Shown piece after piece: positions 1-64,000 of a stretch of 64,000 bases of DNA (positions are counted from its first letter, which is position 1; the number at the start of each line of letters is the position of its first letter). The DNA comes from a virus, in the IMG/VR virus record IMGVR_UViG_3300045988_086557, one strand, 5' to 3'. The notes beneath the pieces were generated by a model, which made no database searches, was not told where the DNA came from, and saw only the letters and a list, made by a program, of their open reading frames with translations. The position numbers and the translations under genes are program-made.

Positions 1-55
1 CTCGTTCTGCTCCGAGTTTCCGTTCGCGCAGGCTCACCAAATTTTTCTTTCAAAA
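1..55. repeat. 55-bp GC-rich direct repeat, copy A (may extend beyond window start)
   Basis: identical to 26663-26717. Confidence 0.9.
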
Positions 56-153
56 ATGGGGTTTGGACAATTTATGTGAAATCTCTTGTCAATATTGTTA
101 TATAGTATAAAGAGAGATAATTTTCTCTACTTCTTTAAGAAAGGAGAATAAGT

Positions 154-411
154 ATGATTACTGTTGGTAAAAATACAGCCAATAAAATTATATATGGCGC
201 GATTCATTTTTTATGTGATTACCAAAGTGATGTTGCTAATCTCCCTACAAACCGAAAGCCAGGCAGTTCGGCATATGTAATTGAAAATGGAAATAAATAT
301 ATTCTCAATTCTGATCATGAATGGGTGTTGTAGCCCTCTGGTGGAGGCGGAGATTAGCCTCTTCCTCCAGAAGATACAACTATTATTTATGATGGCGGAC
401 TAATTGGCTAA
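154..411 (+). CDS. hypothetical small protein (85 aa) with 2 in-frame TAG sense codons
   Basis: RBS AAGGAGAAT before ATG 154; frame 1 open through TAG 331-333 and 355-357 to TAA 409-411. Confidence 0.4.
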
Positions 412-419
412 AGGAGGGA

Positions 420-986
420 GTGACTTTGGCTGAAGTTGTTTATAAAACAATATTTTAGTTCAAGCGAGGAACATCAGAGAAGTGGACCGAATTAAATCCA
501 ATTCTTCGTCAAGGTGAGCCTGGATTTGAAATAGATACTGGAAAGTTAAAAATTGGAGATGGAGCCACCGAGTGGAAATAGTTAAAATATATAAATAGTA
601 GTTTGGTAAATGTTGATGTAGACAATCAGTCTATTGTTATTGATGGAATTGGACAGATTTCATTAAAAGGATTTGCAGAAGCATCAACAGGGCAATCTAT
701 TAGAAAAAGAGAAGATGGCACATTAGAGTGGTATACTCCAATATCTTAGGATAAAGTAATAGAAACTATCTCTATCGGAAATAAAGATTTGCCGGTTGAA
801 GATAATAAAGTTACTATTCCGGCGGGAACAGAAGAAAATCTTGGTTTAATTAAGGGGAGTAGTTAGAATAACTAGATAAAAATACTTTCAGATGGAACCG
901 GAGAAATTAATTCTGTAGGACTTGATAAAATAGTGGATGTTGAAGGTTTTACTTTAATATTAAACTGTGGGACAGCAGTAGACTAA
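420..986 (+). CDS. tail fibre-like protein, N-terminal RIQL/KIGDG fibre motif; 5 in-frame TAG
   Basis: RBS AAGGAGGGAG then GTG 420; frame 3 open to TAA 984-986; motif FKRGTSEKWTELNPILRQGEPGFEIDTGKLKIGDGATEW shared with genes at 1007, 3284, 4690. Confidence 0.5.
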
Positions 987-1006
987 AATAAGGAGGCATT
1001 TTAAAG

Positions 1007-2068
1007 ATGGCCAATGAATTAAAAACTAGAATCCAACTTAGACATGATACCGAGGAAAATTGGACTTCAGTTAAGGACTCCTTTATTCCTCTCGTTGGAG
1101 AGGCTTGTCTTACCACTGATGGCGAGAATAAAGGAAAAGTAAAATATGGTGATGGAACAAGCACTTGGGGTTAGTTAGAATATTCTGGTGGAAAAGATAT
1201 TGTAGAAGTTGATTCATCTATTGTAAAATTTGATGATGATTTTACATTTACCTATACTTTTGGTAAATATGCTCCTGGAGGAGATGGATCTGTTAATATT
1301 CCCGCGACTGGAAAAACATTAGATCAATTACTGCTAGATGCTTTTGCGGAAGAAAAAAATCCTACTATTACGCAACCTTCTGTTAGTATTTCCTCTAGTC
1401 AAATGAAAGCGTATGAAGCAGGCACTAATGTAACTCCAACTTATACTGCAACTTTAAATAAAGGATCTTATCAATACGGCCCAGACACTGGAATTACAGC
1501 AACCGGTTGGAGCGTCCAATTTGATAAAGAAACAAAAACAGAAGCTACTGGAACTTTCTCTGAAATTCAAGTTGAAGATGCTACTAATTTAAAGATTACA
1601 GCAACAGCTAATTATGGGAATGGAGCTATTCCTGTTACAAATCTTGGTTCTGAATATGCAGAAGGACAAATTAAAGCTGGATCTAAGTCTAATAGCACAG
1701 GAGCTATTACTGGATATCGCTAGATTTTTTATGGAGTTAATAATTCTACAGATCCTTTAACTAGCGCGATTATTCGTTCTTTAACAGCAAGCAATAAAGC
1801 GGCAGCCGCAATGACTATTAATAGCATTAAAGCAAAAAGTGATACTAAGAGAATTATTATCGCAGTTCCTCAATCTTCTGGGCTTAAAGTTACCGCAGCT
1901 AATATTACTTCTAGTTTGAACGCAGATGTAACTTCTAGCTATGTAAAGCAAGGACCAGTGCAAGTAGAAGGGGCAAATGGATTTACCGCGGTTCCTTATG
2001 ATGTATTCGTTTATCAACCTGCTTCCATTGATCCAACTGAGGATCATAAGGTTGTAATTGGAAAGTAA
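1007..2068 (+). CDS. tail fibre protein; ORF-track fragments 1403..1723 and 1811..2068 are the same frame joined across TAG 1172 and TAG 1721
   Basis: ATG 1007 after RBS AAGGAGG; frame 2 continuous; N-term IQLRHDTEENWTSV...KYGDGTSTW fibre motif; TAA stop 2066-2068. Confidence 0.6.
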
Positions 2069-2085
2069 GGAAGGAGGAACAAATA

Positions 2086-3258
2086 ATGGCAGTAATTAAC
2101 AAAGATATTGCATATATAGCGTTACCTCTGAGTATTCGTAGAGGAAATCCTTTCCCTATTGATGAATATTCAGTATGGTATGATATGGAAGAATTAACAA
2201 CATATGCTCAATCTAGTCCTGTAGCATATGTTGGTTAGGTAGTTACCTTAGTTAATGAAGAAGAAAATACAGTTGAAGCGTATATGATTCAAAATACTGC
2301 TGGCAATTTAATGAAATTGGCTTCAACTACTGCTTCTGGTGATTTAACGGAAGATGTTTTAGAGCTTCAAGGAAAAGTTTCCGCATTAGAAACCTCTGTT
2401 GGTACCAAAGAAGAAGAAAGTTCAATAACAGCTTCTAATCTTTGGGCAGCCATTGAGGAAGTTAAAGCAGCTTATGAAGCAGCTGATAGTTCTATTAATG
2501 GAAAATTTAATGATTATTATAATAAAACAGAAGCAGATTCTAAGATTGACCAAAAAATTGCTACTGCAATAAGTTCAACTTATAAACCTGCTGGTTCCAT
2601 TATGTTTAGTTTCCTGCCTACACTTGGAGCTGATCAAGAGGGAAAAGTATATAATATTATAGATGCTTTCACCACTACTGAAGACTTCGTTGAAGGAGCT
2701 GATAATAAATATCCAGCTGGAACTAACGTAGTATGTATTGACACCGATGATGCTGGAACTTACAAATGGGATGTTCTTGCGGGATTTGTAGATTTAAGTG
2801 GATACGAAACTACAAGTAGTGTAGATACTAAGTTAGCTAATAAAGTCGACAAAGTAGAAGGATCATCTTTAGTTCAAGACACTCTAATTGCTAAATTATA
2901 GGGTTTAGCAGAAATCAAAGGAGTTAGTGATGAATTAGAAATCGATCCTGATGATAAAATTCTTGGTGTAAAAGCGATTGCGTAGGAGAAAATTACTGGT
3001 CTTCCCGCAGCTTTAGCAGAGAAGATTAAAAGTATAACCGTAGGAACTACTCCTCTTTAGATTAGCAATGGCGCAGTTACTATTCCTATTGCTACAGCAG
3101 AGGCTCTTGGTGTAGTAAAAAGCACCACTAGTGAAAACGGCGTTTCTATTACAGGCGATGGAACTATGATTGTCAATAACATAAATATAGAAAAAATTAC
3201 TTAGACTCCTGGTACAGAGCTTATCTTAAATGGTGGAGATGCTACTGTTAGTGAATAA
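2086..3258 (+). CDS. tail fibre / receptor-binding protein; 5 in-frame TAG
   Basis: RBS GGAAGGAGG before ATG 2086; frame 1 continuous through TAG 2236 and 2899 plus three more to TAA 3256-3258; C-terminal module paralogous to the 3284 gene. Confidence 0.6.
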
Positions 3259-62863: not shown

Positions 62864-62888
62864 TTAAGTTCCTCCTTTAAGAAAATTA

Positions 62889-63122
62889 TTAAAGGCCGAG
62901 CATTTTCTTAAAGTCAGCAAACTCCTTGTCATAATTTAATCCTCTTTGGGATAAAAGATTTCTAGCTATTTGTTCAATCTCTTCGGTTTTATTCTATTTG
63001 GCAAGATCTAACAAATTAGCTCCAAACGGATTATTCCCCATCTAACTTTCTAATATATTTAGAGTTAGCTATTGAGGATTCTATCCATTCCTAATCATTT
63101 GAATTAACTACATTGGATTCAT
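62889..63122 (-). CDS. hidden small protein (77 aa) with 6 in-frame TAG
   Basis: RBS AAGGAGCC; MNPM[TAG]LIQMIRNG[TAG]NPQ[TAG]LTLNILES[TAG]MGNNPF...; ends TAA TAA; not in ORF track. Confidence 0.4.
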
Positions 63123-63134
63123 TTTATCGGCTCC

Positions 63135-63560
63135 TTAAAAATCTAATTTTGGCTTTGATTCCTGCTATTGCGCTGTAGGCTATTTATTTGCCTATGGCGC
63201 AATTTTTTCTTTTAATTGAGCAAGTACGGTTTCAAATTCTTCTCTAGTAACAAACTAAGAAGGATTGACAACTGTTTCAATCGGAATATTTTTTAATTCA
63301 TAAACATTAAGTGTTGAAGTTCCATCTAAATTTATCTATTTTGTATATATTTTTTTATTAGCTAAATCAGGAAAGAAAAATACAGAACCATCAAAGTCAA
63401 TGCTAGTTGCCTTTACTTCTTCTATTGAAGAAACTGGGCGACCTTTAATTCCAATCTAGGGCTATTCCACATAGGGCATTCTTTGTTGCGGAGCATAAGG
63501 GATTGCCGCATACTAAGGTTGCTATTGTTGTGGTATATAGTATGGATAATTAACTGCCAT
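63135..63560 (-). CDS. hidden Gln/Pro-rich protein (141 aa) with 9 in-frame TAG
   Basis: RBS AAGGAGGT 6 nt before ATG 63560; MAVNYPYYIPQQ[TAG]QP[TAG]YAAIPYAPQQ...; ORF-track 63422..63619 is the wrong frame. Confidence 0.45.
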
Positions 63561-63659
63561 AGTTTTACCTCCTTTAAAATATTCCCTTGGCCTTTCATTA
63601 TTATATAAAATTTTGGCAAAGATAATTTTACTATTTTGCCAAAATTTTTGCCAATTTTA

Positions 63660-63693
63660 GTATAAAAATATAATGGGGCATAGTAACCCCATT
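63660..63693 (-). terminator. rho-independent terminator for - strand gene
   Basis: AATGGGG CATAGTAA CCCCATT then A/T run on - strand. Confidence 0.6.
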
Positions 63694-63696
63694 ATA

Positions 63697-64000
63697 TCAT
63701 GATGCTCTATTTTCATTAACCGCGGCTTCAATGAGATTAGTTAGGTAAGTATTTAAGTCGCCAGTTGTCTCAATAATATATTGTTTTGCATCAGATGATA
63801 AGATCTCTAATACAGATTCCATAGTCTTATCAAATGCAATTTTTTGAGCCTCAGCATCAAAAGCACCTTGTTCTTTTAAGCTATTAACATAAGTCTGATT
63901 TGTAGCTATTACACATTTAGTAATAGTATCAAATATCATAGTGGTGTATTTCTAAGCTGTTTCATTCTCTGTCTTAGAATTTAACTCATCTCGTTTAGCA
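63697..64000 (-). CDS. hypothetical protein, 5'-partial (continues beyond window) with in-frame TAG at 63952
   Basis: frame open upstream of ATG 63939 through TAG to window edge; TGA stop 63697-63699. Confidence 0.4.

Follow-up and report, generated by a model that had tools for sequence, protein, structure and literature searches.

Genes of the window and in-frame TAG

We analysed a stretch of 64,000 nucleotides (nt) from the virus record IMGVR_UViG_3300045988_086557, hereafter the window (34.6% GC), in which the amber triplet TAG had been proposed to act as a sense codon, probably for glutamine (Gln). By the identity of its proteins, the window appears to be part of the ~148-kb genome of the gut phage Caudoviricetes sp. 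ctOa11, a Clostridia-type member of the EF1/PMBT24/phAss-1 group. It contains tail-fibre-like genes, a long block of tRNA and auxiliary genes, lysin, topoisomerase and replication genes, and a final block on the minus strand (Table 1). Genes were scored by a codon model that had been derived from long standard open reading frames (ORFs), giving a final set of 76 genes with 19,446 codons, in which 99 in-frame TAG are spread over 31 genes; ~4 of these 99 may sit in spurious N-terminal extensions. The genes terminate with TAA (55) or TGA (21), as the preliminary description of the window had stated, and none with TAG. A greedy ORF set, containing spurious minus-strand ORFs (e.g. 16106-17953), was rejected in favour of the codon-model set.

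With TAG opened, the cover by greedily picked, non-overlapping ORFs was 0.955 instead of 0.877, and their median length 173 instead of 134 amino acids, the improvement foreseen for gene calling in the style of translation table 15. The cover was not improved by opening TGA (0.875), and opening TAA gave a smaller gain (0.916), with many picks moving to the minus strand (37 vs 20). TAG is the rarest of the stop triplets in the window. At 9 of its 1988 occurrences it is flanked on both sides by an open stretch of ≥100 codons in the same frame, compared to 2 of 3975 for TAA and 1 of 2286 for TGA, and is thus about ten times likelier to interrupt an otherwise open frame.

We identified Pfam domains that run directly across TAG sites. 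The RuvC domain spans profile positions 2-148 of 148 across nine TAG; DHH, DHHA1 and RecJ_OB follow in order across the thirteen TAG of the RecJ-like exonuclease; and the TAGs of the lysin are crossed by Phage_lysozyme2 (profile 2-140 of 140) and Amidase_2. Further domains in TAG-bearing genes are GIY-YIG, RNA_ligase, and NAGPA with SPOR. Genes previously proposed to be readable only through TAG were recovered with the same numbers of in-frame TAG (Table 1), as was the gene at 43199-44737 (2 TAG), with one correction: the RecJ-like gene holds up as a readthrough gene, and its TAG number 13 rather than 14.

Coding potential is equal on the upstream and downstream sides of TAG. Within 20 codons of a gene stop, 11 TAG were observed against ~7.7 expected under a uniform spread; we do not regard this as an excess near gene ends, and therefore see no sign that TAG still terminates. 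The TAG near the C-terminus of RecJ lies opposite Gln in Enterococcus phage VRE9_3. If the in-frame TAGs were instead real stops, marking pseudogenes, split genes, or errors of assembly or sequencing, the genes should fragment under table 11, as they do, and as GenBank annotations of such records show. However, only TAG is affected and never TAA or TGA, identical TAGs are found again in contigs that were assembled independently from other samples, the coding potential is unchanged past TAG, and essential genes are affected while a cognate suppressor tRNA is present, leaving this explanation a negligible chance of being correct. The genome uses genetic code 15, in which TAG is an in-frame sense codon behaving like CAA and CAG.

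Glutamine opposite TAG and the suppressor tRNA

We aligned the recoded proteins to homologues from relatives that were identified in IMG/VR through the DnaE protein (designated L and a number), and from the GenBank phages VRE9_3, Enterocloster phage PMBT24 and phAss-1. As an internal control, the frequency of Gln opposite TAG was compared, alignment by alignment, with that opposite the CAA/CAG codons of the window. Gln was found opposite TAG at frequencies of 0.95 in L005, 0.42 in L009, 0.32 in VRE9_3, 0.32 in phAss-1 and 0.21 in PMBT24, and opposite CAA/CAG at 0.92, 0.41, 0.29, 0.25 and 0.18, respectively, over a background Gln frequency of ~0.03. The enrichment of Gln opposite TAG that the preliminary description had led us to expect is thus present, at the level of true Gln codons. 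Pooled over 116 sites, Gln leads the next residue by 108 log-likelihood units, and the next commonest residues are Glu and Lys.

Individual sites and close relatives are consistent with this reading. Among 49 homologues of the lysin from bacterial genomes, TAG codon 225 lies opposite Gln in 43 of 46, the remainder being TAG in recoded relatives, and TAG codon 274 lies opposite Gln in 47 of 48, the sole exception being Asn. The three sites that had been named as Gln positions from motifs, 39017, 57177 and 49830, are all in-frame TAG and each is opposite Gln in a homologue (YIGQ in phAss-1, TQGC in PMBT24 and ADQVL in VRE9_3, respectively). In ~85-90%-identical relatives, TAG of the window lies opposite TAG at 35-39 sites, opposite CAA/CAG at 14-19, and opposite other codons at 2-7, and the reciprocal comparison agrees.

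All other codons read as standard in a Codetta-like pass, in which ATG and TGG are not assessable by leave-codon-out profiles. We additionally noted two oddly built tRNAs: a 77-nt class-I tRNA at 6903-6979 (+) with the Leu anticodon CAA, A73 and no long variable arm; and an 87-nt tRNA at 7123-7209 (+) with the Cys anticodon GCA, U73 and a long paired variable arm. The T-stem of the latter has changed in a compensatory manner in relatives, and its place is taken by a regular tRNA-Cys of 77 nt in the 90% relatives (seen among L014-L019). A further reassignment, for which these two tRNAs could be a sign, was looked for and not found, with TTG reading as Leu, and TGC and TGT as Cys, in the alignments.

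The cognate tRNA reported for TAG is present, with the anticodon CUA (Table 1; identified by ARAGORN, and with 59.8 bits by the Rfam tRNA model). It has a D loop of the G18G19 type, a variable loop of 5 nt and the T-loop sequence TTCGAAT, and is followed within 21 nt by a ribosome-binding site and ATG. Six IMG/VR contigs, the 90% relatives among them, match it exactly over 38 nt that extend across the anticodon and T arms. The full-length tRNA is identical in L016-L019, whereas L014 and L015 lack one base of the D loop, and L015 further differs at position 1. It is 84% identical to tRNA-Sup-CTA #1 of phAss-1, and the best annotated matches outside phAss-1, tRNA-Met and tRNA-Phe of unrelated phages, are uninformative on isotype. 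Across the CUA tRNAs of the group, positions 1:72 never form a strong pair (U.U, C.U, U.C, U-A or A-U), and N73 is always G. In Escherichia coli tRNA-Gln, U35, G73 and an unpaired 1:72 are classical identity features for glutaminyl-tRNA synthetase (GlnRS).

Suppressor tRNAs linked to theta ribozymes, which resemble the hepatitis delta virus (HDV) ribozyme, have been described in which a minimal ribozyme directly adjoins the tRNA (PMC10879173). The tRNA of the window differs in having no ribozyme family match beside it: a search for HDV-like and theta ribozymes over 5200-7500 gave none at the gathering score or at E <= 5 with Rfam 15, in which a theta-specific model is unconfirmed. A sigma-70-type promoter, whose function is predicted from its consensus, lies ~440 nt upstream of the tRNA.

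We considered whether TAG might be read as a residue other than Gln, such as Trp, Glu (through a non-discriminating glutamyl-tRNA synthetase, without amidation) or pyrrolysine (Pyl). ARAGORN calls the suppressor a tRNA-Pyl, a label due solely to the anticodon; its anticodon loop (CU-CUA-AA) differs from that of phAss-1 tRNA-Trp only at position 35; and Glu and Lys are the residues next most frequent opposite TAG. However, Trp was found opposite TAG at none of the 116 sites, Gln exceeds both Lys and Glu by >100 log-likelihood units, and the two lysin TAGs fall on near-invariant Gln. The tRNA-Pyl has an atypical architecture, and the suppressor is a normal cloverleaf without it; no pylS or pylBCD domains were seen among the Pfam-scanned proteins of the window, nor any Pyl-like signal in the alignments. 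A different residue is therefore very improbable, and the reading of TAG as Gln, with the phage-encoded tRNA(CUA) as its probable decoder, is supported by the alignments and the tRNA.

Uneven use of TAG within the window and across the family

The recoding had been described as running throughout the genome. TAG is indeed a sense codon, but its use is far from general: 45 of the 76 genes lack TAG, which makes up 99 of 700 Gln-type codons (14%), and the heterogeneity among genes is strong (chi-square p ~1e-17). Table 1 lists the features concerned. A terminator-like hairpin lies between the tail-fibre genes, which contain TAG, and the TAG-poor block of tRNA and auxiliary genes. The highest shares of TAG occur in RuvC, two minus-strand genes, RecJ, the GIY-YIG nuclease and the lysin, and the tail-fibre-like genes are TAG-rich too, while the DNA polymerase DnaE, which has a sigma-70-like promoter of its own at 50367-50395 (consensus scan), the topoisomerase, DNA ligase and primase are TAG-free. 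Three genes use CAG near-exclusively for Gln, 7453-8973 (10/11 of the CAA/CAG codons), 16673-17944 (14/14) and 25717-26613 (16/16), in a genome with 439 CAA vs 162 CAG, which suggests that these genes were acquired separately and possibly recently.

Table 1. Features of the window, with the number of in-frame TAG and the TAG share of Gln codons
Feature	Position	Strand	In-frame TAG	Remarks
Four tail-fibre-like genes	420-986; 1007-2068; 2086-3258; 3284-4621	+	5; 2; 5; 3	PHROG tail-fibre/tail-spike N-terminal matches
Intrinsic-terminator-like hairpin	4628-4668	+		strong; 19 pairs and T run
TAG-poor block	4690-28781	+	4	~7,000 codons
Sigma-70-type promoter	5606-5634	+		perfect TTGACA, 17-nt spacer, TG-TATAAT (TGnTATAAT); consensus scan, putative function
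Amber-suppressor tRNA	6072-6147	+		canonical cloverleaf, U1.U72 mismatch, G73, encoded CCA
RNA ligase-like gene	16673-17944	+	2	
NAGPA + SPOR cell-wall protein	28835-29689	+	2	Pfam
Lysin	29692-31101	+	9	39% of Gln codons; Phage_lysozyme2, Amidase_2, SLH-like
GyrB-like and GyrA-like type II topoisomerase genes	32025-36293	+	0	TAG-free also in phAss-1 and L022/L023
GIY-YIG nuclease	38336-39247	+	8	40% of Gln codons; includes YIG-Q-S at 39017
RecJ-like exonuclease	46317-48068	+	13	46% of Gln codons
DnaE-type DNA polymerase	50428-54309	+	0	1293 amino acids, 52 Gln codons
NrdD and NrdG	54898-57581	+	1 and 2	NrdG includes F-T-Q-G-C at 57177
RuvC resolvase	59573-60052	+	9	69% of Gln codons
Three consecutive TAG within RuvC	59768-59776	+	3	direct sequence reading
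Minus-strand block	60571-63999	-	19	hypothetical genes; includes 62889-63122 (5 TAG, 56% of Gln codons) and 63135-63560 (9 TAG, 53%)

We investigated the distribution of TAG across the phage family, using a profile search with five DnaE sequences, which identified 80 loci in 39 lineages at 85% DnaE amino-acid identity. Sixteen of these lineages are TAG-recoded, several contain in-frame TGA instead in their replication genes (L116, L123 and L144), and the rest are standard; therefore, the family mixes codes 11, 15 and probably 4. In the TAG-recoded lineages, the pooled TAG share of Gln codons is highest in RuvC (0.43), RecJ (0.26) and NrdG (0.19), intermediate in Gmk (0.14) and NrdD (0.11), and low in primase (0.07), dUTPase (0.07), DnaB (0.06), Dda (0.06), Sak4 (0.05) and DnaE (0.017). 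The share is greater in RuvC than in DnaE in 10 of 10 lineages, and greater in RecJ than in DnaE in 10 of 12, with none reversed. Among the eleven genes compared, TAG is confined to RuvC in L132 and L101.

The positions of TAG are mostly not shared between distant lineages, with TAG of the window coinciding with TAG at just 1-3 sites in L008/L009, indicating that the gene-level bias has been re-created and not merely inherited. Between close relatives, TAG and CAA/CAG are exchanged at 14-19 of ~56-60 sites. The many double changes from TAG to CAA at a nominal "90%" identity arise because the nucleotide identity is 85%, with synonymous sites near-saturated. The conserved hierarchy of genes in their use of TAG supports selection at the level of the gene.

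Other features of these relatives were noted in passing. PhoH contains 3-5 in-frame TAG in L022/L023 and none in the window; hence, the recoded gene set shifts between relatives that are ~80% identical in amino acids. L103, which with L143 is among the TGA-type relatives, carries a 95-nt tRNA(UCA). Over 40-64 kb of the window, the nucleotide identity to L005 is mosaic, at 100% over 48072-48875, 95% in RecJ, 82.5% (~82%) in DnaE and 69% in Dda, which points to recent recombination between lineages.

The pattern may be explained by the following course of events. The suppressor tRNA would be transcribed early by the host RNA polymerase from the consensus promoter, would be charged with Gln by a host enzyme, as its U35, G73 and unpaired 1:72 suggest, and would compete with host release factor 1 (RF1). 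TAG-free genes could be translated immediately under the standard code of the host, and the TAG-rich nucleases, the lysin and structural genes would be made only after the suppressor had built up. Recoding would in this way act as a translational timer or attenuator, as Borges et al. propose (bioRxiv 10.1101/2021.08.26.457843). We tentatively suggest that amber codons were selected as a graded brake on RuvC, RecJ, the GIY-YIG nuclease and the lysin, products that would be dangerous early, with polymerase, primase and gyrase kept amber-free; RuvC would have been recoded first, and 1:72 and G73 adapted to the host GlnRS. This proposal could well be right, but we would not back it against all of its alternatives together.

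The uneven use of TAG could also have arisen with TAG as a uniform synonymous codon for Gln, without any regulatory role. The unevenness would then reflect gene history and the tolerance of imperfect suppression, with acquired or recombined genes staying TAG-free, and long, dose-critical enzymes avoiding TAG. The turnover of TAG to CAA/CAG between close relatives is synonymous-like, several TAG-free genes have an atypical CAG-only usage, the genome is a recombination mosaic, as seen against L005, and TAG has neither a 5' positional bias nor a +4 nucleotide context bias. However, neighbouring genes of the core that are vertically inherited differ consistently over 16 lineages (DnaE 1.7%, RecJ 26%, RuvC 43%), the mostly unconserved TAG positions require that the bias be created anew, and the TAG-rich nucleases and lysin match a class reported elsewhere as preferentially recoded (bioRxiv 10.1101/2021.08.26.457843). 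We consider a purely synonymous role rather unlikely, while history or dosage possibly account for part of the pattern.

Several observations weigh against the reading of TAG as a Gln codon with selected, timed use, or against parts of it. The suppressor tRNA is about equally similar overall to the tRNA-Gln, tRNA-Asn and tRNA-Trp of phAss-1, and its anticodon loop is, as noted, one base away from that of tRNA-Trp. No release factor, RF1 antagonist or aminoacyl-tRNA synthetase was found among the 40 Pfam-scanned proteins of the window. A pure gating model might predict that TAG gathers towards the 5' end of genes, and such a bias was looked for and not found (Kolmogorov-Smirnov p = 0.13); recent horizontal acquisition could explain part of the TAG poverty of the 4.7-28.8 kb block. 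Some of the 16 TAG-recoded lineages may share a recoding event. Finally, the pattern of TAG among gene classes fits a late-gene switch and is kept across lineages, and the timing of expression is deduced from promoter motifs and gene functions. With these points weighed, we are highly confident that ctOa11 is a code-15 phage, in which TAG is a non-terminating Gln codon, decoded by a CUA elongator tRNA and used in a conserved, gene-specific manner; the timer we infer.

Auxiliary genes, identity of the phage and known systems

The TAG-poor block contains the four tRNAs, an SPFH protein, PhoH and several sets of auxiliary genes. At 9385-11820 (+) we identified an 811-amino-acid homologue of the eukaryotic major vault protein (MVP), with a Vault repeat and an MVP shoulder, that matches residues 478-815 of MVP in PDB (E = 3e-17). 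A protein with DUF2828 and DUF7788 (7453-8973, +) is encoded just upstream of it, and the pair follows the tRNA cluster. In the minus-strand block, 61958-62863 (-) encodes a 301-amino-acid protein of PHROG 16490, whose N-terminus is rich in glycine; it probably has a membrane segment, and CCC/CC motifs recur in it.

We additionally identified a TAG-free gene set for salvage of nicotinamide adenine dinucleotide (NAD) at 18190-22749 (+), consisting of an isochorismatase-type nicotinamidase, a PRPP-synthetase-like protein, a protein of the NAMPT/NAPRTase family and NAD synthase (NadE). It is common to phAss-1, at 38-69% identity, and resembles a counter-defence pathway by which a phage reconstitutes NAD+. 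A cluster of RNA-repair type extends over 13166-17944 and 23542-25565 (+), and includes an RlaP nucleotidyltransferase, three metallophosphoesterases, an RNase T-like exonuclease, an RNA ligase, a Thg1-like 3'-5' polymerase and an AAA_33 kinase. This cluster may serve in tRNA repair against host anticodon nucleases.

Four proteins of the window were looked up, and all four, the MVP-like protein, DnaE, the DUF2828 protein and GyrA, are exact matches to DAN98122.1, DAN98101.1, DAN98294.1 and DAN98109.1, respectively. Of these, DAN98122.1 belongs to Caudoviricetes sp. ctOa11 (BK048656.1), as its "major vault protein". Each of the four exact sequences was seen on >100 contigs, and the phage is thus common. 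No nucleotide-level relative was found by megablast or blastn of the window against a collection of GenBank phages that lacks BK048656. The match to ctOa11 is accordingly one at the protein level, with four residue-identical proteins and a GC content of 35.33% vs 34.6% in the window, and no difference is shown.

The lysin homologues in bacterial genomes belong nearly all to Clostridia, mainly Oscillospiraceae and Acutalibacteraceae, and one of them, from an Oscillospiraceae isolate in culture, matches at 60% over the full length. Binning had placed two recoded relatives in metagenome-assembled genomes (MAGs) of Eubacterium and Oscillospiraceae. Thus, the host is probably a standard-code member of Oscillospirales. 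At 148-149 kb, the contigs L022 and L023, which come from MAGs of Eubacterium sp. and Oscillospiraceae, resemble complete recoded phage genomes that were placed in bacterial bins.

The recoding of TAG to Gln in this genome is correct but already known. Babkin et al. (2023) name BK048656_ctOa11 (147,880 bp, 35.33% GC) as a relative of phAss-1, with suppressor TAG codons, and as the only one of three such genomes with a tRNA-SUP-CTA (PMC10607447), so that the novelty implied in the preliminary description does not stand. The major vault protein of ctOa11 has likewise been described before (Santos et al. 2023; bioRxiv 10.1101/2023.11.10.566534). The papers on ctOa11 are without per-gene TAG statistics, a likelihood test for Gln and the observation on tRNA positions 1:72. 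Our additions, namely the proof of Gln with an internal control, the hierarchy of RuvC and RecJ vs DnaE over 16 lineages and the conserved unpaired 1:72, are quantitative refinements of a known kind and open no new question. For annotation, table 15 is required, as RecJ, RuvC, the lysin, the GIY-YIG nuclease and virion genes are lost or fragmented under table 11. The contrast between RuvC/RecJ and DnaE, in a large family of Clostridia phages, can moreover be used to test the idea of "recoding as infection timer".

Another described system of the same broad family is phAss-1 (OQ749652; proposed Phassvirus; "Caudoviricetes code 15 clade" at NCBI), with which the window shares the DnaE polymerase, RecJ, NrdDG, ThyX and the NAD salvage genes, the reading of TAG as Gln, a homologous Sup-CUA tRNA, a TAG-rich RecJ and a TAG-free DnaE. 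It differs from phAss-1 in amino-acid sequence (25-59% identity), GC content (44.5% in phAss-1) and synteny, and in its tRNAs, with 36 including three suppressors in phAss-1, and four including one suppressor in the window. Membership of the EF1/PMBT24/phAss-1 group is seen in the DnaE-type polymerase and the synteny of the replication module, which follows the order DnaB, primase-like, RecJ, Dda, DnaE, guanylate kinase, dUTPase and RuvC in EF1/VRE9 and PMBT24. Proteins of these phages are 24-51% identical to those of the window. In contrast, EF1/VRE9 and PMBT24 use the standard code, with no in-frame TAG in the shared replication genes.

A parallel for the suppressor is found in the amber suppression by Gln of E. 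coli su7/supE, where GlnRS readily accepts a tRNA that combines CUA, G73 and a weak 1:72 pair, irrespective of the source of that tRNA. There, the suppressor is a host mutant; here, the phage encodes it as a permanent component of the coding system. Stop-codon recoding in phages was reportedly noted by Ivanova et al. in 2014, and code 15 in gut phages is by now a well-established phenomenon. Proteomic proof of code 15 is given for crAss-like gut phages (Peters et al. 2022; PMC9523058).

The use of TAG in the window can be compared with the late-gene switch proposed for stop-codon recoding by Borges et al. (bioRxiv 10.1101/2021.08.26.457843). Common to both are a low-GC phage, a (here probable) standard-code Firmicute host, a suppressor tRNA and recoding of only part of the genes, with the lysin and a homing-type endonuclease among the most recoded, and a single clade that mixes codes 11, 15 and probably 4. 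The window differs in that the "code-change module" with release factor 2 (RF2) and an aminoacyl-tRNA synthetase, known from some clades only, was not found among its Pfam-scanned proteins. It differs further in where recoding is concentrated: the strongest and most conserved enrichment of TAG occurs in RuvC and RecJ, two nucleases of the replication module that process DNA, whereas the neighbouring polymerase is TAG-free.

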